A DNA stretch of 64,000 nucleotides from Eledone cirrhosa (lineage: Eukaryota), in contig OZ024743.1 of the NCBI GenBank assembly GCA_964016885.1, forward strand, positions 225,742,001 through 225,806,000. The letters run 5' to 3'. The first letter of the stretch is position 1; every line of letters begins with the position of its first letter. Both the position numbers and the translations under genes were made by a program. This document shows positions 12,023-64,000 of this stretch, one piece after another. The notes beneath the pieces were generated by a model. It saw only the letters and a list, made by a program, of their open reading frames with translations, did no database searches and was not told the DNA's origin.

Positions 12023-12092
<70 letters not shown>

Positions 12093-12116
12093 GGTATATA
12101 TATATATATATAATAA

Positions 12117-13230
12117 GTAAGGCAATCAAAGATATGAAGACGGGTAAGGCGGCTGGGCCTTCGGAAATTGTTTCTGAAATGCTGAAAGCATCTGAAACGG
12201 TGGGACACACTATGGTCACCCGGATAGTAAACCAAGTCATACGGAATGGGGTCGTTCCGAAGGACTGGCGTAGCAGCATAATCATTAACTGCTACAAGGG
12301 TAAAGGAGATGCCCTAGATATGGGTAACTATAGAGGCATTAAATTAATCGACCAGGTCATGAAGGTCACAGAAAAAGTAATAGCGCAACTAATCAGAGAG
12401 CGAATTGATCTAGATGAAATGCAGTTCGGGTTTGTGTCAGGTAAAATTACCACAGACGCTCTTTTCATTGTACGACAACTACAGGAGAAGTACCTAGCTA
12501 AAAGTAAACCCCTATACTTAGCTTTTGTTGACTTGGAGAAAGCCTTTGACAGAGTCCCCCGCTCAATTATCTGGTGTGCTCTTAGAAAACTAGGTATTGA
12601 TGAATGGCTTGTGAGAGCTATACAAGCCATGTATAAAGAAACAGTCAGCAAAGTTAGAATTAACAACGAATATAGTGAAGAGTTTAGCGTGAAAGTTGGT
12701 GTTCATCAGGGCTCCGTCCTTATCCTCCTCCTATTTATTATTGACCTTCAGGCTATAACAGAGGAGTTCAAGACCGGCTGCCCATGGGAACTCCTATACG
12801 CAGATGATCTAACGCTCATAGCTGAATCAATGGCCGAACTAGAGAAGAAATTCCAAATATGGAAGCATGGCCTAGAATCAAAAGGCCTTAAAATTAACCT
12901 GTCTAAGACTAAAGTTCTAGTTTGTAGGAAGGAAAATAGGGCACCAGTCCCATCTGGGAAATGGCCATGCTTAGTGTGTAGGAAAGGAGTAGGCAGAAAC
13001 TCTATTTTATGTCCCAAATGCAAAGTATGGGTGCATAAAAGATGTAGTGGGATCACAGGTAAGCTAACTAAGTATATAGATTTTATATGTGGCCGGTGCT
13101 CTGGTGCAATAAGTAGCAGCAAGTGCCCACAGAATACTAGCCCATTCCATTGCACAGATGGTTCTATAGAAATAGTGGACACCTTCCGTTACCTGGGTGA
13201 CAAAATCAGCAGTGGTGGAGGGTGCTCTGA
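12117..13230 (+). mobile_element. RTE-clade LINE reverse transcriptase fragment with embedded PHD-like zinc finger, truncated by a Penelope-like element
   Basis: KAAGPS, NYRGIKL, QFGF, FVDLEKAFDRVP, GVHQGS, LLYADD, then C-x2-C..C-x2-C..H-x2-C..C-x2-C, then FRYLG. Confidence 0.92.
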
Positions 13231-14547
13231 ACTTTTTAGTGCAATTGTGGACTGCAAATAGGGCGTCGTCCCTGTATATTCCGCCTTGCAAGGGTTGGAT
13301 TTCGGCTCTGATGTTATGTAATAGGTAAATTCCAACTAAATCGGTGATTTGCGCAGAGTCACTTGAGCCCATCGTGATGTCAAAGTTGTCTGTTCTATCC
13401 TTTCTAGTCCAGAGTGCTCCGTTGAATTCAATGATGGTCTGCCTAGCCATAAGTATGATGTTAATCTCATTATTGGTTATGTCCGAGTTGGTGCTGGCAA
13501 GGGTTAATGCTTTGTTGAGCGGGGTTATTGAAGCGTAATAGCTGTCGATGTCAAATTGGATGAACCTCATACATTGCTTGGACCTTAGATCGGAGAACCA
13601 CCTTGGCCGGTGTTGGACCACGACTTGTAGGTGATGTCATCCCGTAGCCCAGGGATTATCCTATCAAGGATGTTCTTACTGATACAACCCAGGTCGGATG
13701 TGTTTGGGCTTATAAGTCTAATAGATGGGTTCTCTATAAAGTTTGGCTTATGATCCTTGATAGAGAACCTTGGGGTTGTTGGTACATAAGGGTGGGTAAA
13801 TCTATCCAGATGCAAGACCTTAACCAAACCCTGGGCTTTTCGGTTAAGTACGTTTACACTGGAGGGTATAGTTTTTTTATAGTTTTAAGAAGGAAAGAGT
13901 TGTAAGTTTCAGGAGTCATGGTGTATAGATTTTTAGTTTTGTCAGACATAACATGTAAGAGGTGGCTATCTTTAATTTTTGTTATAGTTGTTACTAATTT
14001 AGTGAGGAAATTATTCTTGTGTCTATAATGCTTTTTGAATTTAATGCCCCTGACGAAGTTGAATAGATCTTTCTCAAAAGGGTCCAGCAGGATGTTGTGT
14101 GGGGGGTTCTTGCAGGTGGTAAATCCATATCTATTTACTGTACTTCCGGCGTCAGCAGCACTCGCATGGTCAAAGTGGAAGGCTTTCCATCTTATTCTTC
14201 GGATGAAAGAGTTGACACTCTGTATTAGGAGTTTGAGGTATGTCTTCCTGTCCGGGATAGGTACGGACTTAAGTGAGATTCTGAGTTCTCGCTTAATTAA
14301 CATGGTGACTTCAAACAGTAAATAGCTCAACTACGGGAGCTCAAGTATACACAGTTCAAAAGTAACCAATCTTAAAGAGAGAGATGGAGATAGGAGAGGA
14401 GATAGGAGAGGAGAGATTGGTGAATTAGTTAGAAGCCAAAGCGTAAAGGCATGTGCTCAATGTGCAATATGCAGTAGAAAGCAGCTAGGTGGTTGGGTTC
14501 ATGCAGAAGTTAGGCGCGCAGAGCTGATATATATATATATATATATA

Positions 14548-15528: not shown

Positions 15529-17733
15529 AATAATGGAGCTGCGGCGTTGCAAATGGGATACATATGAAAAAGTGAGTCCTTCATCAGTGACCCTCCAACC
15601 GTCCTAGGCATTTCATCGCTTTAAGGGCCATATGCCTCAGGTTGGTGCGAACAACGACTAAAAAAAGTAAGAACATCCTTGATAGGATAATCCCTGGGCT
15701 ACGGGATGACATCACCTACAAGTCGTGGTCCAACACCGGCCAAGGTGGTTCTCCGATCTAAGGTCCAAGCAATGTATGAGGTTCATCCAATTTGACATCG
15801 ACAGCTATTACGCTTCAATAACCCCGGAACTGCTGAACAAAGCATTAACCCTTGCCAGCACCAACTCGGACATAACCAATAATGAGATTAACATCATACT
15901 TATGGCTAGGCAGACCATCATTGAATTCAACGGAGCACTCTGGACTAGAAAGGATAGAACAGACAACTTTGACATCACGATGGGCTCAAGTGACTCTGCG
16001 CAAATCACCGATTTAGTTGGAATTTACCTATAACATAACATCAGAGCCGAAATCCAACCCTTGCAAGGCGGAATATACAGGGACGACGCCCTATTTGCAG
16101 TCCACAATTGCACTAATCGGGGCATTGATTTGCTAAAAAAACAATTACATAGATTTTTTTAAAAATAACAGTCTCTCTATCACCATCGAGCCGAACCATA
16201 AAGTAGTAAACTACCTAGACATCACCCTGGATATCAACAATAACCTATATTACCCTTACCATAAACCAGGTGAAATACTCACATATATTAGCCCAAACTC
16301 TAACCACCCACCGGCAGTCATCAGAGCAGTAATCAAATCTATCTCATATAGGATCTCCATGCTATCAGCAAATGAGGAGATATTTATAAACCATGCACAA
16401 TATTATAATAAGGCTCTTTCTGAATCTGGTTATGAACAATCCATTTACTACATACCTAAATGCCATAACACAGCAATTCACCATAATAAACTTAACACTA
16501 GAACTAGAAATACCTTAGCATATAGCCAGATCCGCCGGAATTTTAGCAGTAACAGCACCTACACAGGGAAGTTTAATGGTGGCAGCGGCCTGCTCCCCAC
16601 TCCAAGTAGCAAACTAAAAATCAACCCTAGAATAGGAATGAGAAATGGGATGACAAATAACAAATCCCCAGGTAATAATAACCCTAGGAAGGCCCCTACC
16701 AACTCCACTAGAACCCCTAAAAGGAATAGACCTAGAAATATCACCTGGCTTAACCCCCCCCCATTCTCATCCAATCTAGCCACTAATATCCCTAAACGCT
16801 TCTTCTCTATCCTATCTACCCCCCCCCAACCATAGATATTACAAACTCTTTAATAAAAAATAACATTAAAATCTCATTCTCCACAACACCTAACCTAGCT
16901 AGCCACATCGCATTCAGTAACCATCATAAACTAAGACAGTATTACTCCCACACCGCGGTACCACCACCCCTATCAAATACACCACGCCACTACACCAATA
17001 ATTACTCTAGTAGCACACCTCCCCCATCTAATCCTTCTAGCACTGACCAACTGCTTAGGTTAAACTACCCTACTCTCACTAACCGCAGAAGCAACTGCAA
17101 CTGCCGTTACCTTAATGCATGCCCATTAAATGGACACTGCCTGACACTCAACATAGTTTATAGGTGCACGGTTAAAACTGCTTCGAATACCAGCTCTTAT
17201 ATCGGGTCTACCTCTAACCTTTTTAAGGTAAGCTATAACGCACACTCTTTTTTCCTTCCGAACCCTAGCAACAGATGTTCGACATCTCTAGCTAGGTTCA
17301 TTAAAAACCTTAAATTAAGCAACATTGAACACTCACTAAAATGGGATATCGTGGTTAGGGCCCAACCCTTCAATGGACGAAGAAAATCTTGTGATCTCTG
17401 TATTACCGAAGCATATTACATAACTCTATCACGACCTCTACCGATTAACGATAGAACGGAGGTAACTATTAGCTGTCAACATCGAAGGGCTAATTCCTTC
17501 GCCAATAGAATATTTGACCCAACATAGTCATCTAGCCCCATTTTCACTTGTAGCTAATAAGTTAAATAGCTATAACTAACTTAGATAATTATAAGTTACC
17601 TCCCCTACATTGTCTCTCAATTAAAAAAAATTAAAAATTAGCACTTAACTATAAACTACCCACAATTTCTAATCTCTTGAGGATTTACTTCCCCAGAAAC
17701 CACCCTCTAATTAGTAAGGTAAATATGTCCTTT

Positions 17734-17746
17734 GGCGGCCATCTTG
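17734..17746 (-). promoter_or_regulatory. YY1-like motif upstream of the 3' pLTR
   Basis: CAAGATGGCCGCC on the minus strand; motif match only. Confidence 0.3.
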
Positions 17747-17905
17747 TTACCCATAGGAAGATATCACAGAATGCAGCCTCGACAGATGAATACTGCTTGA
17801 TTATGGCTGACAACTGATCCAACCAGGACACCATAGTGAAACACCAATATATGGAACACTACATTATGTAACATTCTCTCCTTATTTTAATTTATATTCC
17901 TTTGA

Positions 17906-18026
17906 AGTTCCGATGAGTCGCTCTGTTTTTAAATTTGTTAATTATTTTCAACTGAACCAGATGAATAATGATATATAGTCATCTGATCCAGAAATATTAT
18001 ATGGAGTAGCGAAACAATTGTAAACT
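17906..18026 (+). ncRNA. Type I hammerhead-like motif in 3' pLTR
   Basis: AGUU CCGAUGA GUCGCUCUG..UGGAGUAGC GAAA CAAUUG UA AACU. Confidence 0.65.
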
Positions 18027-18147
18027 GACATTATTATTAATATTATTATTATTATTCTCTACATTCCTTACATCAAACTAAAATATGCTGACAATCTTTT
18101 AATAATGTCTTCCTTGTGAAATTTGTGGTCTTGTATTGCTTAACTAA

Positions 18148-18235
<88 letters not shown>

Positions 18236-18271: not shown

Positions 18272-18531
18272 CTGAGTTTCTCTTTCTTCTTCTGACCAAT
18301 GTAAATAACATTAAAGAGAAATAATGGATTTTTAGAAATCAGTTCTGGCATACAAACATATATATATAGCGGTGGAGGAGGATAATGACGATGATAGTGA
18401 TGATGAGAGGATGATGAAGAGACTCTATAATTCCACCAACTTCCTGTTTGTATGCCAGAACTGATTTCTAAAAATCCATTATTTCTCTTTAATGTTATTT
18501 ACATTGGTCAGAAGAAGAAAGAGAAACTCAG
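18272..18531. repeat. Inverted repeat with ~87-bp arms inside (GAT)n microsatellite
   Basis: 18272-18358 is the reverse complement of 18445-18531. Confidence 0.9.
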
Positions 18532-18648: not shown

Positions 18649-18712
<64 letters not shown>

Positions 18713-18962
18713 GAGAGGTATAGAGATTGTTTTAGCAAGAAGCTAACGGCATTCTATAACATATATGCGACTATAACGTCAAGATGGGAAAAGTAGTTAA
18801 CGAAAGATTTAGGAAAAATAACTCAAACTCATCTCAAAAGAGAATCAGGATATAAATTCATCCACAGAATTTAGTAAAATCCAGGGAAAAATCTATAGAC
18901 CTTTAACTCATGATAAAATACAGTTTGAAACACTTATCCTTCAATTTGGAATAACATCAAAT

Positions 18963-19043
18963 GCTCTGTATAGTCTTAAAAGACTATTTCATGAAAACTT
19001 TCAGTGGAGATGGTCACGGTTGGATTTCATTCATCAGCAGAGC
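18963..19043 (-). ncRNA. Type I hammerhead ribozyme, unit 1
   Basis: GCUCUG CUGAUGA AUGAAA..UUUCAU GAAA UAGUCU UUUA AGACUA UA CAGAGC; intact core and three stems. Confidence 0.92.
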
Positions 19044-19590
19044 TCAACAGAAACCAGGGCTCTCACAGTAGTATAATCCGAAAAAGGGAATTCTAAAACT
19101 GGCTAGTTCGCCTTCATGTGTATTTATGAAAAAGCACATGAGGAAAAAACGGGGCTAGTGACGTCAGGATGGAAGTGAATGTTTATTTACAAGAAATAGC
19201 AGTCAAATACATTCTGAAAAAAACTCTACAAAGGAGTTCAGCAAAATAGCAATAATTATCACAGTTTTTATGAAAAAAACCGGGATTAGTCACAGATAGT
19301 TTAAGCACTCTAGGAAAAGAATCCGAGTATAAATATAAATGAGAGGTATAGAGATTGTTTTAGCAAGAAGCTAACGGCATTCTATAACATATATGCGACT
19401 ATAACGTCAAGATGGGAAAAGTAGTTAACGAAAGAATTAGGAAAAATAACTCAAACTCATCTCAAAAGAGAATCAGGATATAAATTCATCCACAGAATTT
19501 AGTAAAATCCAGGGAAAAATCTATAGACCTTTAACTCATGATAAAATACAGTTTAAAACACTTATCCTTCAATTTGGAATAACATCAAAT

Positions 19591-19671
19591 GCTCTGTATA
19601 GTCTTAAAAGACTATTTCATGAAAACTTTCAGTGGAGATGGTCACGGTTGGATTTCATTCATCAGCAGAGC
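19591..19671 (-). ncRNA. Type I hammerhead ribozyme, unit 2
   Basis: Same motif, offset +628. Confidence 0.92.
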
Positions 19672-20218
19672 TCAACAGAAACCAGGGCTCTCACAGTAGT
19701 ATAATCCGAAAAAGGGAATTCTAAAACTGGCTAGTTCGCCTTCATGTGTATTTATGAAAAAGCACATGAGGAAAAAACGGGGCTAGTGACGTCAGGATGG
19801 AAGTGAATGTTTATTTACAAGAAATAGCAGTCAAATACATTCTGAAAAAAACTCTACAAAGGAGTTCAGCAAAATAGCAATAATTATCACAGTTTTTATG
19901 AAAAAAACCGGGATTAGTCACAGATAGTTTAAGCACTCTAGGAAAAGAATCCGAGTATAAATATAAATGAGAGGTATAGAGATTGTTTTAGCAAGAAGCT
20001 AACGGCATTCTATAACATATATGCGACTATAACGTCAAGATGGGAAAAGTAGTTAACGAAAGATTTAGGAAAAATAACTCAAACTCATCTCAAAAGAGAA
20101 TCAGGATATAAATTCATCCACAGAATTTAGTAAAATCCAGGGAAAAATCTATAGACCTTTAACTCATGATAAAATACAGTTTGAAACACTTATCCTTCAA
20201 TTTGGAATAACATCAAAT

Positions 20219-20299
20219 GCTCTGTATAGTCTTAAAAGACTATTTCATGAAAACTTTCAGTGGAGATGGTCACGGTTGGATTTCATTCATCAGCAGAGC
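20219..20299 (-). ncRNA. Type I hammerhead ribozyme, unit 3
   Basis: Same motif, offset +1256. Confidence 0.92.
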
Positions 20300-20524
20300 T
20301 CAACAGAAACCAGGGCTCTCACAGTAGTATAATCCGAAAAAGGGAATTCTAAAACTGGCTAGTTCGCCTTCATGTGTATTTATGAAAAAGCACATGAGGA
20401 AAAAACGGGGCTAGTGACGTCAGGATGGAAGTGAATGTTTATTTACAAGAAATAGCAGTCAAATACATTCTGAAAAAAACTCTACAAAGGAGTTCAGCAA
20501 AATAGCAATAATTATCACAGTTTT

Positions 20525-20562
<38 letters not shown>

Positions 20563-20857
20563 TACACATACATATCTCCTTATAATATATAACCAGCAAT
20601 TTCTCTGTCTGTCTGTCCGACAGTGGAAACACGTGCGCGCGTGGTTGCTATCTCTCTCTCTCCAGCTATCCCTCTCTTTTAGTCTGTCTGTTTCTCTCAC
20701 TCTCACTCTTTCTCTTTGTAACACACTAACATTCCTCCCCTCTATCGCTGTGACGAATGGGGAGATGGAGGAGGAGGAGGAGGAGAGAATGACTTCGTCA
20801 CTTCACCTCTGCCTTTCTTTCTCTCCCCTCTCACTCCCTCATTACGTACAGACATTA

Positions 20858-21380: not shown

Positions 21381-21424
21381 ACTAGAACTGTTACATTCTT
21401 GAGAAATCACCAGGAATATATTAA

Positions 21425-21478
<54 letters not shown>

Positions 21479-21482
<4 letters not shown>

Positions 21483-23950
21483 CTCCTTTCTCTCCTTCTT
21501 CTGCTCCTTCCACCCCTCCCTCCACTTCACCACCTCTATCTCCACCACCCACGTCCACTTCTTAGACATCTCCGTCGCCTTCGACCCCTCCCACCACTCC
21601 CTCGTCACCTCCGCCTTCTTCAAACCCACCGACTCCCACTCTTACCTCGACTTCACCTCTTCCCACCCCACCTACACTAAACTCTCCATTCCCTACTCCC
21701 AACTTCTCAGGAGCCGCCGCCTCTGTAGCCGTGATGCTGACTTCGAGTACCAGGCCCTTTCCCTAGTCAGCCATTTCATCCGCAGAGGTTACCCCCCCTC
21801 TCTCGTCTACACCGCTCTCACCCGCGCCCGTGCTATCCCCCCCCCCCCACGCCACCGCACACCCACCCACCGTCTCCCCTTCCCCATCACCTACCACCCT
21901 CCACCTTACCCCTCCACCGCACCATCCGCCGCCTCTTCCGACGCCTCCAGTCCGACCCCTCCACCTCCCACATCTTCCCAACCCCACCACTCCCCTCCTT
22001 CAAACGCGCACGCAATCTCCGCACCCTCCTCGTCCACAGCTCCCTACCCCCCAACCCACGCTCCGGTTCCCCCCCCGGTTCCTTCCTCTGTTCTATGCCC
22101 CGCTGCAACACCTGACCCACATCACCAACACCACCACCTTCCAGGGTCCCAATGGCCACACTCTCTCGGTCCGGCATGCCTTCCGCTGCACCTCCTCCAA
22201 CCTAGTCTACGGACTTCGTTGCACGAGGTGCAGCGCGACTTATGTCGGACAGACGGGACGTCGCCTGGCGGACCGAGTCACGGAGCACCTCCGGGATATT
22301 CGTCTCGGGGGCAGTTCCCCCATCGCCCGCCACTTTGGTGGCCCTGGACACTCCGCACGCCATCTCACAGTCTGTGGCCTACTCCAGTGCCACGGAACAC
22401 CCGCCCATCGCCTTACGGTCGAACAACGCACTATCTTCATCTTACAGACCCACACTCCCCCCGGCCTGAACTCCCCACCCTTATTCCTTTAGCGTTCGAC
22501 CGCCCCCTCCCCCTCCCCCCACACTTATCCCCCACTAACACCACTAACACACCCCTCCTTTTCACCGCCCACCCCACACTAACAATACTAACACCTCCAC
22601 TCCACCCCTCATCTGACCACCCTTCCCCAACTAACATACTAACATCCCTTCCCTCCCCTCTTCTCCTCCTCCCCCTCCTTATCACACGCACACACGCACC
22701 CACTTACACCACCCACCCCACACGCAACTAACATCACTAACACCCCCCAACCCCACGCACACGTACCCACACATCCTCGTACACCACCAACTCTACACAC
22801 CCTACCACCACTAACCCCACTCACACCTGCATTCCACCCCTCCCCACCTCCCGTATACTAACACCCACTAACACCAAACTACACACACACCAGTACACCA
22901 TACTCCCTCCATAGAACCACACACACCCTTCTCTCCTCGCTCCACACTCACTCATCCCACTAACACCCCTACTAATACACACACACACACACACACACCC
23001 TCCTCACTCCAACTCTCACACCTACCCATCCTCGCCTCCCTACCATTCCGCCGACTGCTGCTATGCCCTTCCGACCACCTCTCAGCACCAACTGACCACA
23101 GCACTCCCACTGCTGACCACTTCCTGTTGCGCGCGCACCCCACATCTCTCCTCTTCCGACCACCACTTCTTGGATTACCCACACACGAAATTGACTTCTA
23201 ACCAAATCTCCAAACATCCGTGGAACTTACCAACTTTTCAACCATCCTCTTACACCATCACCTATATAACTCACCCCCCCCCCCCCCCAAAAAAAATTTT
23301 TTTTATCCACACGCCACCCACACCCACAACACGCTTAAACCACACACACGTGCTTCCCACCACATATTTACACCCTCAGCCTCCTGATTTCTCTCCCCCC
23401 ACCCCGCTATCCACACACGCACAGACACTTCGACCCCCCAAAACACCCCCACACACACACCTTCCTGAACATGCAACCCCGTTCTTCCCCCAACCCTCAC
23501 TTTCACATACACACACACACACACACGCACACCTAACCACACACACCACCTTCAGCCCTCCCCGCTCGGACACCCCGTCTCCCTCTCCCCACTCCACCCG
23601 CCACCACCCCTACTCACCCCACACCCTTCCACCACCTGTTTACCCCCCTTTTAATTTCAGTTTATTTTGATCATGCCTTTATTTTTAAATTTTCTCATTC
23701 CTTGTATTTTGATCATGCTTTATTTTTATTTATTATATTTTTTGTCTTTATTTGTTAATTTTTCATTCGCACCGTTTCCTTTCGCTATATGTCTCTCCAC
23801 CACTCCCCTACACACCTTTTGAACTCTCACCTGAAGAAGGGCTTATGCCCGAAACGTCGTCCCCCACCTACCCCCCACTCTCCTGAGCGTGAATTTAATA
23901 AACATTTATTGTACTGCCTCTCTGTTCTGTCCCTGTTCAATTTTTCATTA
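21479..23950 (+). mobile_element. Penelope-like element (Neptune-type), 5'-truncated: RT thumb, GIY-YIG, long C/A-rich 3' region, pLTR; flanked by (TA)n
   Basis: HFLDI, KPTDSHSYLDFTSSHP, IPYSQLLR, RGYP; FRCTSSNLVYGLRCTRCSATYVGQTGRRL..R..EH; PPGLN; stop at 22492. Confidence 0.9.
23826..23862 (+). ncRNA. Minimal Penelope-type hammerhead motif
   Basis: CUGAAGA A GGGC UUAU GCCC GAAA CGUC with palindromic ACGU stem III; stem I weak. Confidence 0.75.
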
Positions 23951-28565: not shown

Positions 28566-30323
28566 GTTCTTCTGGTTTTATAATTTCACAAAATTTTACC
28601 AATAGAGAGAGAGTCGGTTTCTAACATAGACACAAGACTCTCTCATTGGAATTTACACAACATCAACTAGGTAGAGATGTATGTATGCATGTGTAGATAT
28701 GGATTTTATTGTATGTGTGGATGTGTATGTTTTGAGTTGTATGTGTGCATGTGTATATGCTTTGCATCTGTACATGTGTATATGCAGTTATTAGATGCAA
28801 AATTTCTGGAATGTTTTACATATTTTTACTGTTCCATTAATGGATTGTACTTGTAATTTCCTAATTAGTTGTGTTCTTTCTGTTCCTGTGAAGCCTAGCT
28901 TCTCAAGATTTGTATTGAGGCAGTTACTAACATACCCCAGTGCCCCAATAATCACAGGCATAAATCTGAAGGTGTAATCAGGGTGGAGTATCTGCAGATT
29001 TCTCAACAGTTCTGCATAAATATTCTCCTTTTCACTAACCTTTGATATTATATTGGCATCTGCTGGGTAGCTAATTTCTACTACTGTGCATGCTTTCTTC
29101 TCCCTGTCCCATATCATAATATCTGGTCTGTTATGCCTGCATTTTATTGGGGTTTTTACTGGAACATTCCACCAGTACACTTTCATATTATGTACATGGA
29201 TGTCTTCCACATTGCTGTAGCTTTTAATGTGTTTATTATCGGGGCTATCTTTTTTACGAACTGCATTGTACAGTGTTTTGGCCACTACATCGTGCCTCAT
29301 AGGTACATAGTACCGCGATGACATCTTTGGACAGCTGCTGATGACATGGGTGATATCCTCGATGTTAGTTCTGTAGAGTCTGCACTTGTTATCACATCTA
29401 GGTGTTTTGCCTGCATTCCTATCTCTTTTGTGAATCAGGTATTTCGTGTTAATCTCCTGTTCTTGGATTGCAAAAGCGTATCCTTCAAAGTGGGAGCCAA
29501 TATTGCGGTTGTTGGTCCAAGATAGACTACTTTCCATATCTATATTACTCTCATTCTGGAGCTTCCTAGCAACACATCCTTGCATGAAGTTTTGCTGATA
29601 AGCATGCAGTTTTTCATCGATGGATTCACTGCGATACTGCTGAGCGACTTCCCTGGGTGTGAGTTTTTGATTATCACACAGGGAATATCTCTCGAGGAGT
29701 TCCTTCCCAACTCTCATGATCTTATCTGTTTCATGCAGATAGACTTGCTCGAGAAACGGGCTCCTACGCTTCGAGGTTTTTAGATGTTGTCGGAGAGATA
29801 TAATGCGAAATTCAAATGTTGTCTGGACTAATGTTAGGCCTCTGCCTCCCTGCTTACGTTTCAAGTAAAGGCGGTCTATGTCACTTTTGATGTGGAAGTA
29901 TCCGGTGTTGTTTAGTATTTTTCGAGTTCCAACATCAACTGCTCGGATTTCGTCTATCGTCCAATTGAGTATTCCAAACGTTGGTGTTAGGACAGGCACA
30001 GCAAACACATTGTGAGCCACTGTTTTGTTTTGCGCAGAGAGTTCCGATGACCAGTTCTTTCTTAATCGGGTGTAGTATTCCCTGGTTACGCGTTCTTTAT
30101 TACAGATACCATTATAGGATATGTTCTCATCTATCCCCATGTATCTGTAGCAGTCCTCATCAGATATCGGTGAAACAGTTAGGCCACTGATGACAATGTT
30201 GCTAGATTGGGTTGTTGTTTTTCCCCACTTTACAGTCATATATGAGCATTTATCTTGGCCAAACTCCATTCCTATATCCTTTGAGAACGTTGTAACCAGG
30301 TCAAGATTTTTCTTCATTTTTCT
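28566..30323 (-). mobile_element. R4/Dong-clade LINE, 5'-truncated, open RT C-terminus plus restriction-like endonuclease, inserted in (TACA)n
   Basis: FSKDIGMEFGQDKC, YRYMG, RLYLKRKQGGRGL, AIQEQEINT, CRL..EDITHVISSCP, RHD, RPDI..VVEISYP..K..Y. Confidence 0.92.
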
Positions 30324-30467
30324 ATGTATGTATGTATGTATGTATGTATGTATGTATGTATGTATGTATGTATGTATGTATGTATGTATGTATGTATGTA
30401 TGTATGTATGTATGCATGCATGCATGTATGCATGTATGTATGTATGTATGTATGCATGCATGTATTA

Positions 30468-50874: not shown

Positions 50875-51927
50875 ATAATTGTTTCTACTTTTGGCACAAG
50901 GCCAGCAATTATCCAGTACATTACTGGTACTTTATTTTATCGAACCCGTAAGGATGTAAGCCAAAGTTAACCTCGGCGGGATTTGAACTCAGACCATAAA
51001 GGGCCGTAACTCTTTGCTGCAAAGCATGGCGTCCGATCCTCTACTGATACTGCAATAATAATGGTTTCTTATATAGGCACAAGTCCAGCAATTTTGGGGT
51101 AGGAGTAAGTCAATTTAATCGACACCAGTGCGTGACTGGTACTTTATTTTATTGACTCCGTAAGGATGAAAGGCAAAGTTAACCTCGGCGGGATTTGAAC
51201 ATGAGTTCAAATGATGATGATAATAATAATATTAATAATAATGTTTCTATTTTTGGCACAAGGCCAGCAATTTCTCCAGTGCATTACTGGTGCTTAATTT
51301 TATCAACTCCGTAAAGATGAAAGGCAAAGCTAACCTAGAACGTAAAGGGCGATAACTCTATGCTGCAAAGAAAGGTGTCTGACACTCTACCGATACAGCC
51401 AAAAGACTGCCCTATAATATTAATAATAATAATAATTGTTTCTATATCTGGCACAAGGCCAGCAATTTTCCCAGTGCATTACATAAAAATAATAATAATG
51501 ATTTCTTTATTATATATCATTACTATTGTGGATTGGCAGTATCGGTAGAGGATCGGACGCCATGCTTTCCAGCATAGTTACGTTCCTTTGCGGTCTGAGT
51601 TCAAATCCCGCCGAGGTGAACTTTGCCTTTCATCCTTACGGGGTCGATAAAATAAAGTACCAGTAATGTACTGGGTAATTGATGGCCTTGTGCCAAAAGT
51701 AGAAACGATTACTATTATTAACAGCCATTAACATGGCGGTGGATTGGCAGTATCGGTAGAGGGTCGGACGCCATGTTTTGACGCATAGAGTTACGGCCCT
51801 TGCCATTCTGAGTTCAAATTCCGCCGAGGTTAACTTTGCCTTTCATCCTTACGGGGTCGATAAAATAAAGTACCAGTAATGTACTGCGTAATTGCTGGCC
51901 TTGTGCCTAAAGTAGAAACAATTATTA
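50875..51927. mobile_element. Cluster of six SINE family A copies (four minus, two plus) separated by (AAT)n
   Basis: Copies start near 50875, 51062, 51240, 51432 (minus) and 51527, 51733 (plus). Confidence 0.9.
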
Positions 51928-54320
51928 ACAGCCGGTGAAATACAGGAAGCGATGGCTAACTGCACAAGGGGTAAATCGCCAGGTTTGGATGGTCTGCCCT
52001 ACCAGCTTTATGCATTTATGCCAGACTTGTTCGGTGACCTCTTGGCAGACGTCTACTGCAACTGGAAGCAGAACGGGAGCATTCCCAGTTTTGTGAGCCG
52101 GGGAGAAGTGGCGCTGCTGAGAAAAGACCCGAACAAGGGGGATGTTATCGATAATTTCAGGCCCATAACCCTGCTAAACGCAGAGTTCAAGATTTTGGCC
52201 AAGGTGTTAGCAACGAGGTTGGCGCTTGTCAAGGGTCTGGTGGGAGAGGCGCAGACATGCGTCATTCCGGACAGATCCATTCACGACAACCTCCACCTCA
52301 TGCGATACATCATAGAGAGGGTGGTTAAGGAACCTGGCACGGGTGGGGCCCTGATCAACTTGGATCAATCCAAAGCATTCGACAGGGTCGACCATCGGTA
52401 CCTGGCGGCGGTCCTCGAGGCAGCCGGTTTCGGACCCGTTTTCAAGGGTTGGATCGCAGCAATGTACAGCGACATCTGCTCAGTTGTGAGGGTGAACGGT
52501 CACCTGTCGCAGCCGTTCAGCATCATGCGCTCAGTCCACCAGGGTTGTCCCCTCTCGTCCCTCTTGTACGTATTGGCTCTCGAGCCGTTACTGCACAAAC
52601 TGGGGGCGATGAGGGGCGTCCCACACGAACTAGGATGCGGGAAATCCGAGTCGGCTTACGCCGACGACGTCACCGTGGTGGTGTAGAGCACCAGACACGT
52701 CCAGATGCTCGGCACCGCTCTCAAGGAATACGAAGCGGTGACAGGAGCAAAGATAAACTAGGAAAAGTCGGTGGGCTTCCAGCTCGGTACCTGGAGAGGC
52801 AAGTCCATGCCGTCCGACAGCGTCGTGGGGCGTTGAACGGACGGACCGGTTAAATTGCTCGGGGTCTGGTTCGGACCAGACCTCCAGATGGAGGAAAACT
52901 GGAACGAGGTGACGAGCAGGGTGGCCTCCCTCACCCAGAAATGGGCTGAGAGGAAGCTGTCCCTGAAAGGCCGGGCGGAGGTGGCGAATGCGTACATCGC
53001 ATCCGTTATCTGCTACCGCCTCACCGTCGTCCCTTGCTCCAGCCCAACTCTCACCAAAATGGAGCGCCTCCTCTTCCGCTTTTTGTGGAAGGGACGCGCT
53101 CCCATGGTCAGACGATCCATCTGCTGTCAACACCCGTTGCGTGGAGGACTGGGCATGCCATGACTGATGATGGGCAAACATGCGCTGAGGCTGCGACATC
53201 TCTGGTGCTTCCTTGATGGTGAACAGGTGTGGTCGCCGTTCGCCAGGAACGTTTTCCCACAGCTCGTCTCCTTGACGGAGCTGCAGTCCTGGGTCAGAGA
53301 AAAGACCGAAGGATAGCGCTTGGAAACTGGAATGTCTCCAGGCGTTCACTGCCCACTGCCAGCTGGGCACCAGTATCGGTGGAACATCCACCTCGGCGTT
53401 TTATAGAGGACTAGTGGAGGGGAAGAGCGACGACATTATCGGAAAGATCCTGGGCGTCGAAGAAGATCAGCTGTTTGCTCTCTTCCGGAGAAGTTTCAGC
53501 CCGGGGCCTATGGATAACTTCCAAAAATCCCTGGCGCGGCAGTGCTACCGGGGAGCGCTGCCGGTTCGAGATAAGCTCTACAGGCACGGAAGTGCCGTCA
53601 GCCGAGCCTGTCCGAGATGCGCGCAGAACGACGAAACCGTCGTGCACGCACTCGTTCAGTGCCAGAGCATTGCTGATTTGTGGAGCTATGTCGAACAGTT
53701 GCTGTCGCGTGTTAGACTGATCCGGTTGTCGACTGAGTCCATTGTGCAGATGGTCTCACCGTCTTCCTTCAAGGAGGAAGGCCAGGCGGTTTTCATCTGC
53801 CTGGTGGCAATGGAGAAAGAGATTGTGTGGTGGACAAGGTTAAAAGGGTTAAGACATACACTTTCCTCTTCGGCGAATCCCTAATTAACTTTTTCAAGTT
53901 TCACTTGAAGAGGAAAATCAGGGTGGAGAGGCAAGTGCTGCCTTCTAGCAAGTTTGTTGAAAGGTGGGTGAATGTAGCGAGAATGGTCCGAGTGAACGGG
54001 AATATACGTCTGTAGTTTGAGAAATGGAAAAATTGAGAGAGGGCGCTTGCCCTGGTGGTCAGGGTGGCCATGGTCTTTTGTGTGGTTTTCGGAACGAGTA
54101 ACCCTCGGAGGTTTCCCCCCCTATTGGGGAATTTTTCATTGTTTCAATTTTCATTTTTATTGTTTATATATATATATGTTTCTATGTCCTTTTTTTTCTT
54201 TTCTTATATAAATAATAAAAATATTTACACGCACAAAACCCACATCGTACAGTCCTGTACCGTCTTGTACCGTCTGTAATGTTTTTCTTGATGTCAGCCC
54301 TTGTGGCCAATAAAGAAATC
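51926..54320 (+). mobile_element. Tx1/L1-clade LINE, 5'-truncated, decayed (RT to 3' end)
   Basis: KSPGLDGLP, NFRPITLLN, DQSKAFDRV, QGCPLS, YADD; several stops; ends CCCTTGTGGCCAATAAAGAAATC(ATT)n. Confidence 0.95.
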
Positions 54321-54636
54321 ATTATTATTATTATGTAATGCACTGTATAATAATAATAATAATAATAATAATAAAGATTTCTTTATTAACCACAAGGGTT
54401 TACATAAAGTAGACATTAAGGACAGTGCAGGACAATGCAGGACGGTACAAATGGGCATTTCTGCGTGTAAAAAACAAAAACAGAGGATGTAACAAAAATA
54501 ACAATGAAAATAACAATGAAAAATTCCCCAATAGGGGGGAGACTTCGGAGGGACATTTGTGGAGAAAGCCCAGTAAAAAGCCACAATGACCCTGACCACC
54601 AAGGCAAGTGCCCTCTCCCAGTTTTCCACCTTTAAT

Positions 54637-57600
54637 TTACAGATATATACTCAGAGTAGGCCCATTCACTCGGGCCATTCTTGCTTCTCTCACCCATCTT
54701 TCAACAAAATCCTGGGAAGAGAGCACCTCCCTCTCCACTCTGATTTTCCTTTTCAAATGAAATTTGAAAAAGTCAATCAGAGCATCACCGAAGAGGTAAG
54801 TGCTCGTCTTCAGCCCTTTCAAACGTGTCCACCATACTATCTCTTTCGCCATGGCCACCAGACAGATAAAAACTGCCTGCCCTTCCCGGCTAAAGGAGGA
54901 GGGCGGGGCAATCCTCACGATGGACTCAGATGATAGCCGGATCCGTCCTAAACGCGACAGCAGGTATTCAACATAAACCCACAAGTCAGCAATTTTCGGA
55001 CACTGGACGAGTGCGTGCAGGACGGTTTCGTCGCCCTACGCGCATCTCGGACATGCCCGGCTGACGGCACCTCCATGCCTGTAGAGTTTATCCCGAACTG
55101 GCAAGGCTCCTCGGTAGCACTGCCAGGCCAGGGATTTCTGGAAGTTGTCCATAGGCCCCGGCCCGAAAGTTCTTCCGAAGAGATTGGCTAGTTGATTTTC
55201 GTCGACGCATAGAGTTTCCCCAAGTACGTCGTCGCTCTTACCCTCCACTAATCCTCTATAGAACGCCGAGGTGGAGTTTCCACCGATCACATTGCCCGAT
55301 TGGTCGAGGGCTGTGAGCGCCTGAAGACATTCCAATCTCCAGGCGCTCCCTCTCGGTCTTCGCTTGACCCAGGACTGCAGCTCCGTCAAGGAAACGAGCT
55401 GGGGAAATACGCGCCTAGCAAACGGCGACCACACCTGATCACCGTCGAGGAAGAGGTGGAGATGTCGTAGCCTGAGCGCGTGCCTGCGCATCATCAGCCA
55501 CGGCATGCCCAGCCCTCCACGTAGCGGGTGTTGACAACAGATGGACCGCCTGACCATCGGAGCACGTCCCTTCCACAAAAAGCGAAAGAGCAAACGCTCC
55601 AGCGCAGTCAGGCGAGGCTTAAGACAAGGTACGACGGTCAGGCGGTAGCAGATGACAGACGCGATGTACGCGTTAGCCACCTCCGCTCGACCTTTCAGGG
55701 ATAGCTTCCTCTCCGCCCATTTCTGGGTGAGAGAAGCCACCTTGCTCTTCACCTCTTCCCAGTTTTTGTCCGTCTGGAGGTCCGGACCGAACCAGACCCC
55801 TAGCAATTTAACCGGTCCGTCCATCTAGCGTCCGACGACGCTGTTGGACGGCATGGACCTGCCTCTCCAGGTGCCGAGCTGCAGGCCCACTGACTTTTCC
55901 TGGTTGATCATTGCTCCTGTCACCGCTTCGTATTCTCTTAGTGTAGTGCCGATCGCCTCGATGTGTTTGGCGTTCGACACCACTACGGTGACATCGTCCG
56001 CATATGCTGACACGGATCTTCCGCATCCTAGTTCGCGCGGGACTCCCCTCAACGTCTCCACTCTGTGCAGTAATGGCTCGAGAGTCAATACGTACAATAG
56101 GGACGAGAGGGGACATCCTTGGCGGACCGAGCGCATGTTGTTGAACGGTTCCGAAAGGTGACCGTTCACTCTCACTACAGAGCAGATGTCTCTGTGCATG
56201 GCAGCGATCCAGCCTCTGAAGACGGGCCCAAAGCCAGCCGCCCTCAGGACTGCCGCTAGGTAACGATGGTCGACCCTATCGAAAGCTTTCGACTGATCTA
56301 AATTGATCAAGGACCCACCCGTGCCAGGTTCCTTAGCTACCCTCTCTATGATGTATCGCATGAGGTGGAGGTTGTCGTGGATGGATCTGTCGGGAATGGC
56401 GCATGTCTGCGCCTCTCCCACCAGACCACCAACGACAAGCGCCAACCTCTTTGCTAGCACCTTGGCCAAAATCTTGAACTCTGTGTTTAGCAGAGTTATG
56501 GGCCGGAAATTGTCTATGTTATCCCCCTTGTTCGGATCCTTTCTCAGCAGTGCCACCGCTCCTCGGCTCACAGAACTGGGAATTCTCCCGTTCTGTTGCC
56601 AGTTGCAGTAGACGTCCGCCAAGAGGCCTCCGAACAAGTCTGGCATCTGTACGTAAAGTTCATAGGGCAGACCATCCAAACCAGGCGATTTACCCCTTGT
56701 GCAGCCAGTCATTGCCTCCCTTACTTCAGCGGCTGTTATCGGCTTTTCGCAACACTTCGCCTCAGTGGCCGAGAGCCGCGGCAGTCCGTCGAGGTAGACA
56801 CTAAAGTCCATCCCTCTACCCGGCCCACCGCTGCCCCCGAACAGCTGAGCGAAGTGTCGCTGAAAAGCTTCACACATTTGCCCTGGATCGAGTAGCATGC
56901 GCCCGTCGTGGTCCACCAAAGACCGGATCGTGGCTTTGTTGCCACGACGCGCCTCCGCCACTCGGGCCCATTGAACGGCTTTCGTCCCCTCGTGTCTGAG
57001 AGCACGCACTCTTGCTCTGACAACGCAGCCTTCGCCGCAAGCCAATTTTGCCGCAAGCACGTCGGTCGCAATGCCTTTGCTAAGCGCCTCGTCTAATTTT
57101 CTAACTAGTTCTCCCTCTGCTCTATTTTTCTCTATTGCTAAAGCCTTACTAAACCTAATCGATTCTATTCTAATCGCTCTTTTCAGAGCAAACCACCACT
57201 TGTTGTTGACGATGGCCCCCGTCAACGCCCGCTTAACTAGTTCGCTAATCCGGTCTCTGTAGGCCTTGCGCGCTGGTAAGGACGCGTTTAGCTTCCAGTA
57301 GCCGGGTCCTCGTCTATGAAGCCTATCTAAGTCAAGCACACAGATCACGAATTTGTGGTCCGTGTAGCTGACTATCTTGAATTGTGGACAGCCTATGCTA
57401 GACCTATCTATTTCCCTACAAAATACTCTATCTAGATATGATCTGGATGACCCTATGCGGTTTGTCCAAGTCCACATTGGCACATTCGAGAAATCCAATC
57501 GGTACCTGTCAGACAGTTCAAAACGCCTGAGCAGGTTGGTGAGGCTGTTGCACCCTCCACCCCTATCCGCTAATCCCACATAGTCCCAGCGTGCATCTAA

Positions 57601-58035
57601 GATCCCGTTCCAGTCGCCCACTAACACTAAAGAGCGGGACGTTCCAAGAAAGGTCTCCAGACGCCGGAAGAAATCAGGCCGCCCTGCTCCTGTCGGGGCA
57701 TAGACGGCCACTAGCCTGAAAGCTTGCCCGTCTCCGCTGGTCACGTCCAGCACCACCAGCTTACCCTCTGGGTCCAGGAAGATGGCCCGTATGGCGAGAT
57801 CCAAACCTCTCCGAAAAAGCACAGCAACTCCTCCACCCGATCCAGGACGGCTGGGAGATGCGTACACATCGTAGCCGCCGAAGATCGGTGCGAAGGCCCG
57901 TGCTTCGGAGATTCTGGTCTCGCTGATGGCCACTACATCTATGTTTAGTGACCTGAGGTCGTTAAACAGGTGACCCTGCTTCCATGACGACCCCAAGCCA
58001 CGCGCATTTATGCTGCCTATTCTGAGTGAGGTCAT
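54637..58035 (-). pseudogene. Tx1 ORF2: AP-endonuclease, RT, CCHC finger; two in-frame TAG stops (55825, 55036)
   Basis: SINARGL, ISET, VYAP, GDWN, SYLDR, TDH, WKLN, YADD; the three ORF pieces share one frame. Confidence 0.92.
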
Positions 58036-58216
58036 GTTTAAAATAAAGTGGAAAAGATGGGAAAGACCACTTACCGTACTTTTGGTAGAGGAGGGATGGT
58101 TTTTACATCCCTTTTCACTTGATCGTCTGGTGAAGGGACCGTTGAATCGTCCCTTCGGCTGGTCGTCGGCTCTTCTAAGAGAATGTCTGAATATACTCTT
58201 CGATTGATGGTTCCTC

Positions 58217-60175
58217 CTAGGTCCCTGAATCACCAACTGCGTTGGGGAATTTCGTTTTAATGTTTGTGTATTGTTTCTGTGCTATTTTTAGCAGTCTTAT
58301 GTTAGTTGGCGTTTTGATTGGTGCTGGTATTATGTAGTCCTGTTGTGAAATGTCTGTGTGTTCAATTATGTAAGTCATTAGTTTCTTGTTGTGTGTATTT
58401 ATTGCCGTGCATTTGTTTTTCTGGGGGTGGGGTGTGGTTCTGCTATTTTCTTGTCGTTGTTGCTGGGTGTGTGTGTTTTGTTGTTGTGTTTGCGATGTTG
58501 GTGCTTGTGGTGGTGGTGTTGAAGGTGTTGTTGGCGGTGGGGTTGTCGCCGGTGGTGATGGTGGTGCTAGTGTGGGTGGTGATGGTGTTGGTGGTGTTGC
58601 TGCTGTGGGTCTCTTTGCAGTAGACTTTACCCTTTTCTCATTTCTTTCCTCCCTTTTCAAAGGCGACGATGCGCTGCTTCTGCGTTTGTGCCTTCTTACG
58701 ACCTTTTGCCATCCCTTTCCCACCTCACACTCCATGTCTGATTCTGTGAGGTCGGGGAGGGGTACCAGCTCCACTCTTTCACTTGTTGTTGTTGGTGATG
58801 TTTGCACTGGAGTCTCTGGTGCAGCTGCATTTGGTATTGCTGTTGTTGTTGTTAATATTTCCACTGCTGCTGCTGTTTTTGATTTCCGTGGAGTGGGTAT
58901 GGGTGCCACGACCCTATCGTTCCTGGTTGCCGCTTGTCCTGTTGCTGGTAGCCGTGGAGCCGGATTCGGAAGGAGGGGGGTTTTCTCCTTTCTCAGGGTC
59001 TTCTCGCTGCAGAGGCTCTGAGGTGAGTCTTCGATCCACAGCGAAAGCATTTCGTTTGCCCTCAACACTTATGGGCAGTTGAGTGCCGTTATCGAAGTCT
59101 ATTACATCCGGGATAACTTCGATGCACTCCTGGTTGGTTTGGATTAGCATCTCAATGGAGGTGCCTACCTAATCTTCTCTTACTTTTTTCTGTACTTGCA
59201 TTACAGTTGTTTTGTCCTCGATTCCGACGAGGACAGACGCGGCCAGCCAAGAAGGGGCCATTCCGGGGGGGGGGGGGGGGGGGGGGGGACGTGGGTCAGT
59301 TTGACCTTCACAATTTTTTGCCCGCAGTAGGAGGGCACCAACACCATTTCCTCGCTCCTTAGGGTCACTACTGATTGGGCCTTTGCCTCCTGGGGTGTGG
59401 CAAAAAGTACGTCTACGGTGGCATATTTTTTGCCTCGGGTGATGTGCGTTTTCCGCTGCCACACAGACCCCAAGGCTTTTTGTATTTGGGCCTCTGTGGC
59501 TCTTTCCACCCTACGGAATTTTGTACTTACTGTACGGCACGTGACCGTACAGTGCTCTTGGGTTTCGAAACATTTTTCCGCTGCCTTGCAGATTGCTCGG
59601 TGTCCATTCTTTGTCACCATCTTCTTCGCTTCCTCTAATTCCTCATTTGTTATGAGGATTGTTTCCAAGTTTTTCGCAATACCTGCAAATGAGATTGGTT
59701 TTTCTCTGCTGCTGTTGTTGTTGTCGTCAGAGCTGCTGGTACTTTTGTTGTTGCTGCAGGTACTACGACTACTGCCTCCGCCGCTGTTGCTGTGGTTGTT
59801 GTTGGCGTTGCTGCTGCTAATGCTGTTGTTGTTTATGCTGCTGGTGATGCTGTTGCGGCTGCTACTGTTGTTTTCATTGTCACTGTTGCTGTTGTTATTA
59901 CGGCTGCTACTGCTATTATTCCTGACGTCAGACGAATGAACTGGGTTTTCGTATTTCCCGCACACCTGTTTCGTCGCTGTCGTCGTGGAGAAACCTTGCA
60001 CGCTTTGCACGAGACTTTTCTTTTCTTTCGTCACTTGCGAAAGAGAAGGGAGGGAGAGAGACACATTTAAAGAAGGGAGGGAGAGAGACAATCTTCTCTC
60101 TGCTGTAGTGATGATTGAGGAAGAAGAAAACGGAATGAGTGGGAGTGACGTATGAAATTTCTTTTTCGTAGCCAT
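58217..60175 (-). pseudogene. Tx1 ORF1, frameshifted around a G homopolymer (~59263-59288)
   Basis: ORFs 59201..60175, 58914..59150 and 58217..59068 lie upstream of ORF2; SFAGI and WQKV motifs with S/N- and P/T-rich linkers. Confidence 0.75.
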
Positions 60176-60427
60176 GTTGTTTTTTGTTTAAAATGAATAT
60201 TGGGTACAAAACCCCAATAACTGGTTATTTAACCCCGAAGGGCCAAATAACGGACAGAAAGACCCCTCTCACGAGGAGGAGGGTGTCTTTATCAACAATT
60301 TGGTTCAAGTTTTAAACAATTTACAATTGTTTTAACGGTTAAAAATTACTATACCTTACAGAGCCGAGCCTCCGTCAACCATGGCATTCAATAATAATAA
60401 TAATAATAACAATAATAATAATAATAA

Positions 60428-63400: not shown

Positions 63401-64000
63401 TCACGAATTTGTGGTCCATGTAGCTGACTATCTTGAATTGTGGACAGCCTATGCTAGACCTATCTATTTCCCTACAAAATACTCTAGATATGATCTGGAT
63501 GACCCTATGCGATTTGTCCAAGTCCACATTGGTACATTCGGGAAATCCAATCGGTACCTGTCAGACAGTTCAAAACGCCTGAGCAGGTTGGTGAGACTCT
63601 TCCACCCTGCTCCCCTATCCACTAATCCCACACAATCCCATCGTGCATCTAAGATCCTGTTCCAGTCTCCCACTAACACTAAAGAGCGAGACGTTCCAAG
63701 AAAGGTCTCTAGACGCCGGAAGAAATCAGGCCGCCCTGCTGGGAGATGCGTACACATCGTAGCTGCCGAAGATCGGTGCGAAGGCCCGTGCTTCGGAGAT
63801 TCTGGTCTCGCTGATGGCCACTACATCTATGTTTAGTGACCAGAGGTCGTTGAGCAGGTGGCCCTGCTTCCATGACGACCCCAAGTCACGCGCATTTATG
63901 CTGCCTATTCTGAGTGAGGTCATGTTGAAAAGGAGTGGAAAAGATGGGAAAGACCACTTACCTTACTTCTCGTAGAGGAAGGACGGTTTTTCCATCCTTT
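60428..64000 (-). mobile_element. Second copy of the same Tx1 family, head-to-tail with the previous one; runs off the window; ORF2 disrupted
   Basis: ORFs 63726..63923, 63464..63757, 61968..63527 and 60735..61925 closely match 54637-58035; internal deletion near 63737. Confidence 0.95.

Follow-up and report, generated by a model that had tools for sequence, protein, structure and literature searches.

Metazoan non-LTR retrozymes are non-coding repeats arranged head to tail, with a type I hammerhead ribozyme in each unit (PMC7229834; bioRxiv 10.64898/2026.07.22.740005). According to Li et al. (bioRxiv 10.64898/2026.07.22.740005), their units range from 51 to 972 bp, with an average for ray-finned fish of 650 bp, and most metazoan type I motifs have a helix III of 1 to 2 bp and need a dimer (PMC4209133). 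The idea that an RNA circle is the insertion template is a proposal from the discussion of PMC7229834, and Li et al. 2026 call the insertion mechanism of retrozymes unresolved (bioRxiv 10.64898/2026.07.22.740005). A Penelope-like element (PLE) protein studied in vitro initiates internally on AT-rich targets; uncut RNA is its dominant substrate, and ribozyme activity is dispensable in that system (PMC11167929). Non-autonomous PLEs of Chlamys, such as MRC1, are non-coding, multi-copy and head to tail, have a 3' end that resembles an autonomous family, and belong to a clade described as mostly hammerhead-less (PMC8557442). Plant LTR retrozymes also yield hammerhead-processed non-coding RNAs, with circles of 600 to 1000 nt, but carry type III ribozymes in LTRs, have a PBS and a PPT, generate 4-bp target duplications and depend on a Gypsy helper.

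Here we describe a family of 628-bp hammerhead-bearing repeats in Eledone cirrhosa, represented by an array within a 64,000-nucleotide stretch of contig OZ024743.1 (positions 225,742,001 to 225,806,000; hereafter the window). The coordinates of its features are collected in the table. A first-pass annotation had proposed 2.9 near-identical, ORF-free 628-bp units set in (TA)n, and the period (as assembled), the flanks and our frame scan agree with this description. Unit 1 is identical to unit 3, and unit 2 departs from them at 19436 and 19555 only; the array interior contains no stop-to-stop frame of 120 aa or longer, and the GC content of the unit is low (34%). The architecture is that of a permuted tandem with one fixed end and no LTR layout, and none of the features that set plant LTR retrozymes apart is found in the 628-bp family, for which hammerhead processing is predicted. 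The array stems from the very recent insertion of a non-coding repeat that occurs dispersed. An autonomous PLE was considered and rejected, as the array lacks a reading frame with reverse transcriptase and GIY-YIG domains and the neighbouring PLE frames are separate. Upstream of the ribozyme lies the palindrome TGACGTCA, which we take to be CRE-like; 7 of its 8 columns are invariant across 60 loci and the remaining column is conserved in 55/60. The palindrome is a candidate internal promoter element. Immediately to the left of the array is a perfect 87-nt inverted repeat (18272-18358 and 18445-18531). Elsewhere in the window, endonuclease-reverse transcriptase frames of 818 and 530 aa, presumably L1/Tx1-like, cluster at 51916-63560, and further LINE-like frames are located at 12092-13261 and 28791-30464.

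Table. Features of the 628-bp repeat array and its flanks (window coordinates; RNA sense is the minus strand)
Feature	Position	Strand	Remarks
Retrozyme array	18705..20528	-	2.9 tandem 628-bp units, head to tail
(TA)n target, 3' side	18652..18709	.	
(TA)n target, 5' side	20525..20575	.	
Fixed 3' end of the family	18705..18712	-	merges into target (TA)n; putative internal RT start
Truncated, variable 5' end	20526..20528	-	unit position 568; abuts (TA)n
Type I hammerhead 1	18963..19043	-	predicted cut 18969/18968; 7-bp helix III, 28-nt loop II
Type I hammerhead 2	19591..19671	-	predicted cut 19597/19596; period 628, matches unit 1 here
Type I hammerhead 3	20219..20299	-	predicted cut 20225/20224
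Predicted cut-to-cut monomer or circle	18969..19596; second 19597..20224	-	putative
Conserved TGACGTCA palindrome upstream of ribozyme	19159..19166; again 19787..19794, 20415..20422	.	column conservation

A complete type I hammerhead with an open helix I is present in 3/3 units, and consists of stem I (GCUCUG/CAGAGC), CUGAUGA, stem II (AUGAAA/UUUCAU, with a non-standard A.U at its base that was ancestrally U.U or A.C), GAAA and an AUA cleavage triplet. Both the minus-strand ribozyme in every unit and the three cut positions of the first-pass annotation were recovered as proposed. The Rfam match that it suggested looking for did not materialise: there was nothing at E<=10 on the array, and for the whole window just sub-threshold, microsatellite-driven matches among the 150 of 191 listed. 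This miss is probably explained by the length of loop II and of helix III; it bars filing under an Rfam family but says nothing against the hammerhead fold. In the stems, 93.5% of cells are paired, compared to 23-49% in slid controls. Equilibrium folding of the isolated 96-nt ribozyme gives mean pair probabilities of 1.0, 0.76 and 0.96 for stems I, II and III, and the same fold is obtained with 60 nt added upstream. In longer contexts the ribozyme is not the favoured fold and the stem I probability is 0.01-0.16, which may reflect locking of the circle or else poor cleavage. The predicted circle is more stable than 25 shuffles (z = -3.9; antisense -2.5). Just 5' of stem I, a conserved GUUG (19044-19048) is complementary to CAAC in loop II (19019-19022), and both are nearly invariant; their pairing is a possible loop I-loop II contact or pseudoknot. 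In contrast to the helix III of most metazoan motifs (PMC4209133), the one found here is 7 bp long and closes a non-palindromic loop, and loop II measures 28 nt.

The repeat is dispersed throughout the genome (G000, 3.0 Gb). Exact motif matches, which are not counts of loci, number 298 for a 22-mer of the young ribozyme, 1,333 for a 20-mer of the young 3' end, 1,476 for an older internal 20-mer and 2,149 for the stem III pattern, with 0 matches for each of the reversed controls. The array thus belongs to a large dispersed mobile family, with more than 1,000 genomic occurrences of the repeat. Since exact motifs recur genome-wide with empty controls, and the head-to-tail unit junction is present in contigs from 2/4 public runs, the 628-bp array is neither a chance occurrence nor an isolated artefact. 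The genome comparison that had been recommended on first pass returned identical units on four contigs (C1-C4) with different flanks, and relatives that reach down to 74% identity while keeping a unit length of about 625-640 bp. The earlier label "young" therefore holds for the subfamily of the array but not for the family as a whole, whose subfamilies are 74-100% identical; "unusually large" does not hold, given that 628 bp falls within the published size range. A search of the literature on retrozymes, hammerheads and octopus returned no account of this family, which the supplements of PMC7229834 and bioRxiv 10.64898/2026.07.22.740005 may list. A ribozyme-dead relative with 66 matches was rejected as a mobile subfamily, being one decayed fragment within a macro-repeat. 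This macro-repeat of 30-50 kb has ~46 copies at 124.7-126.5 Mb of C28 (L263-L280) and more on small contigs, and one period also contains a histone 3' stem-loop and a fragment of the 28S rRNA end.

Insertions of the family are strongly polar. When an internal motif is used for selection, 24/25 distinct insertions from 30 loci have the same 3' start, L216 being the exception; it is also found, within 15 nt, in 28/30 insertions picked on the upstream region (exceptions L242 and L248). It sits 264 nt downstream of the cut, inside the cut-to-cut monomer; the opposite (5') ends are scattered, and the target is (TA)n almost always. A fixed 3' start combined with a variable 5' end is the polarity of target-primed reverse transcription (TPRT). 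Inverted copies occur (L081, L242), long direct repeats resembling target duplications are present at 3/96 ends, and a 30-40 nt PLE-type tail is not evident in the sampled insertions. At one TA-rich spot that has been used repeatedly (L058; C1, 105.59 Mb), two arrays of different age, one with 95% and the other with 100% identity to the unit in the window, are placed in opposite orientation ~1.6 kb apart, facing one another.

Insertion lengths and stops were determined for the 73 loci behind the first 100 of the 1,333 3'-end matches, all on C1; the sample is length-unbiased. The 73 measurable insertions include L058 twice, leave out L041 and do not count the inverted half of L081. The median length is 299 nt and mean processivity about 0.4 kb. 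Lengths fit a single exponential (KS p=0.25), with 17 insertions longer than one unit compared to 15.8 expected; above 2,512 nt, 2 insertions are observed against 0.1 expected. Stops occur at 2.61 per kb ahead of the cut site and at 2.42 per kb beyond it. Of 40 insertions that reach the first cut, 39 run past it, and stops within 5 nt of a cut account for 1/60 arrivals; the unit junction is passed by 17/17, and the cut-site columns are unscarred in 70/73 aligned loci. Because the stop rate is even, the cut is passed and the cut columns are unscarred, cut linear RNA is not the usual template. Only insertions of about 1.1 kb or more (7/73) contain the promoter-like motif together with two ribozymes, so that about a tenth of new copies could act as sources, the three-ribozyme array in the window included.

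The multi-unit arrays bear on the template as well. By inspection, each of 31 such arrays keeps to one age group except at single sites, and in L011, L036, L039, L104 and L107 variants private to the locus recur in every unit, as repeated copying of one molecule would give; these "private" variants may also be present in unsampled parents.

To what extent the ribozyme is conserved can be judged from 46 loci that were not chosen on it, in which shared variants affect 0/23 core and stem I columns compared to 128/509 columns overall (p=0.002; core columns alone, p=0.07). When 73 loci are divided into four identity (age) groups, the commonest letter differs between groups in 0/35 core, stem I and stem III columns and in 111/434 background columns (p=1e-4). 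A second measure, a variant in at least 3 loci, is weaker (6/35 versus 147/434, p=0.06). Core position N7, which is free in hammerheads, varies between U, C and G. In stem II, for which 30 of the 46 sequences formed the covariation set, 8 of 27 sequences show a double change from UA to CG and 1 shows one from AU to UA; these may represent two inherited events. Taken at the level of sequence, a core and stems I and III that are fixed across subfamilies, together with a covarying stem II, indicate that the ribozyme is under constraint, and a free N7 within a fixed catalytic core is the pattern of a catalytic motif, with activity being predicted. Blocks other than the ribozyme, among them TGACGTCA, are likewise conserved.

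We propose that the family is a non-autonomous, Penelope-type non-LTR retrozyme that is copied from a re-ligated circle via TPRT, a reading to which we assign a probability of roughly 0.6. It builds on the observed family size, polarity, target, length distribution and ribozyme conservation. Tandem units would be transcribed through, likely from an internal promoter, and the transcript is predicted to cut itself into 628-nt monomers. These would likely be re-ligated into circles, perhaps by RtcB by analogy with PMC7229834. A Penelope-like reverse transcriptase would then likely copy the circle into nicked (TA)n, starting at one internal site and going round the template until it falls off. Array units are later gained and lost at the DNA level, as observed. 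Re-ligation into a circle is the simplest explanation for a ribozyme that is kept while its cut products are never seen as templates, and a start site inside the monomer is consistent with the in vitro behaviour of a PLE, which initiates internally (PMC11167929). The first-pass identification as a non-autonomous retrozyme with a type I hammerhead per unit thus finds support in the dispersed family, the TPRT-like polarity and the conserved ribozyme.

The main rival dispenses with the circle: a small number of long source arrays would be read through, giving linear multimers that serve as the template uncleaved, and the hammerhead would have been retained as a protein-binding or slow, regulated fold. 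We regard this as clearly the less probable of the two. Uncut RNA dominates among the substrates of the PAc PLE, and its ribozyme mutants still insert (PMC11167929); Li et al. (bioRxiv 10.64898/2026.07.22.740005) saw in vitro cleavage for 1/9 predicted Xenopus dimers. The predicted misfolding of the ribozyme in long contexts counts against the circle and would suit an uncut template, and long arrays that might act as sources exist (7-11+ units in L104, L281 and L282). However, the 5' ends do not pile up at a transcript start or at the edge of a parent, subfamilies are unmixed within arrays, and the conservation pattern is a catalytic one; under such a model, cutting would do no more than destroy templates. 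Clear 5' transduction was not found either. The sole fully shared 5' junction among the ends compared is that of L085/L086, which have a common 3' flank too. Three old copies (L121-L123) share a truncation point and adjoining sequence; L122/L123 share 1.9 kb on the 5' side only, which is ambiguous between a duplication that breaks in the TA tract and a 5' transduction.

The tempo of the family raises a further possibility. A tree of 57 units, with a midpoint root and a bootstrap that is not settled, is ladder-like, with ~0.27 changes per site summed along the backbone from the oldest to the youngest group and end branches that lengthen from 0-0.015 (young) to 0.02-0.05 (old). The groups are separated by 127 substitutions, compared to singletons of 0.004-0.022 per site in individual copies; the oldest group consists of best matches and is biased towards low divergence. 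Transversions involving G or C make up 15/127 lineage changes and 176/521 changes in copies (p=4e-7). Evolution driven by ADAR was rejected since there is no RNA-strand A>G excess (12/164 A versus 31/252 U>C, p=0.14). Fast serial copying, selection on RNA structure and RNA-level replication could each contribute to this tempo. It is improbable, in our estimation, that the genomic copies are the fossil record of a viroid-like replicon, the 628-nt circle, whose evolution takes place mostly outside the genome; if true, either an animal retrozyme circle would be copied from RNA to RNA, or the family would have gone through thousands of insertion cycles in series.

We consider it more doubtful still that insertions are born at about one unit, as a terminal repeat plus short extension of an undiscovered autonomous PLE or as a deletion derivative, with tandems arising later by unequal exchange. 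Units are indeed gained and lost at the DNA level after insertion: block duplications of two and three units are present in L053, L083, L104, L108 and L281-L283, and many old-subfamily insertions stop just beyond one unit, which we interpret as collapse. The duplicated pair L085/L086 differs by one unit, so the number of units does not reflect reverse transcription alone, and since family arrays change after inserting, the 2.9 units in the window may not all be as old as the insertion itself. Yet none of the family loci screened is joined to a PLE reading frame, the zero-divergence arrays L002 and L005 already have 2-3.5 units, the length distribution is smooth across the junction, and an insertion shorter than one unit would be unable to expand alone. 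The least probable reading, by a small step, is that cut linear monomers are copied as a pseudo-circle or by template jumping, the enzyme switching at the 5' end of one monomer to a 3' end, either its own or that of a second molecule. Stem I would keep the cut ends close to each other, and tandems are known for PLEs (PMC8557442), but there is no excess of stops at the cut, no scar in nearly all loci and no mixing of subfamilies inside arrays.

With respect to a helper, the genome contains open frames of 808 and 822-823 aa that are inserted in (TA)n and that, from their motifs, we take to be PLE-like; Pfam gave no name to the 808-aa frame. Protein searches for PLEs scored 150 of ~30,000 candidates each. 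The profiles of the unit showed no similarity to PLE termini from 62 loci of two intact families and fragments of ~10 others, a set that takes in a minor part of the PLE families. A minimal hammerhead built on the same stem I matched the genome once, in a degraded family member, and the loose-end motif gave 0 genome matches. The PLE frames adjoining L076 and L081 were rejected as partners, being separate insertions. Several other elements in the window and in the flanks are of a related kind. A 5'-truncated copy of a young Penelope-like family, which we assume to be Neptune-like and which has 822-823-aa frames elsewhere (L287, L288), lies at 21403-23900 (+); it terminates in (TA)n and carries a CUGAAGA...GAAAC core close to the 3' end. 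A second Penelope-like clade is represented by broken fragments at 16137-18150 (+) and 13064-14330 (-), and for the window's other PLE fragment Pfam returned a sub-threshold GIY-YIG match only. A relative of the second clade (L153, L289) has 808-aa frames and a ribozyme-like core of the variant form CCGAAGA, and its long terminal repeat is interrupted by a (TA)(TG) run. Finally, the flanks of L011-L105 (e.g., L032, L043, L055, L056, L073 and L085) contain many other minimal hammerheads. At least 5 further families of type I hammerheads cluster there within the (TA)n tracts that the 628-bp family occupies; in most of them helix III is minimal and palindromic, and some form inverted pairs.

Judged by features that can be read from sequence, the 628-bp family shows everything that characterises non-LTR retrozymes (PMC7229834; bioRxiv 10.64898/2026.07.22.740005). 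In addition to the non-coding head-to-tail units with a hammerhead in each, it shares with the metazoan representatives the lack of visible LTR, PBS and PPT, a low GC content, a size within their range, a structured predicted circle and the presence of PLEs in the same genome. It differs in targeting (TA)n almost always, and no likeness to the sampled PLE terminal repeats was found, whereas 24/57 Xenopus families match known elements. The family likely behaves as a non-autonomous PLE. Its insertion anatomy is of the PLE type in the fixed 3' end, the 5' truncation, the inversions and the microsatellite target, and PLEs and their pLTRs also have a fixed internal 3' start, partial tandems, inverted copies, AT-rich or microsatellite targets and a hammerhead upstream of the start site (PAc, PMC11167929; PMC8557442). 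Unlike PLEs, it has no reading frame, one start site, no clear 30-40 nt tail and a monomer-type rather than a minimal hammerhead, and its start-to-cut distance is 264 nt compared to about 90 nt in PAc. With respect to the Chlamys elements of the MRC1 type, the ribozyme is the best-kept part of the 628-bp family, for which no partner was found among the PLEs sampled.

For the one PLE that has been reconstituted in vitro, the ribozyme proved dispensable (PMC11167929), and the present family lets the circle-template model be tested. To the animal hammerheads it adds one that has a long helix III and is predicted to act as a monomer. With more than 1,000 dispersed insertions, sharp ends, graded ages and recent copies, it allows the form of the template, the start site, processivity and selection on the ribozyme to be read from the genome and then put to the test.
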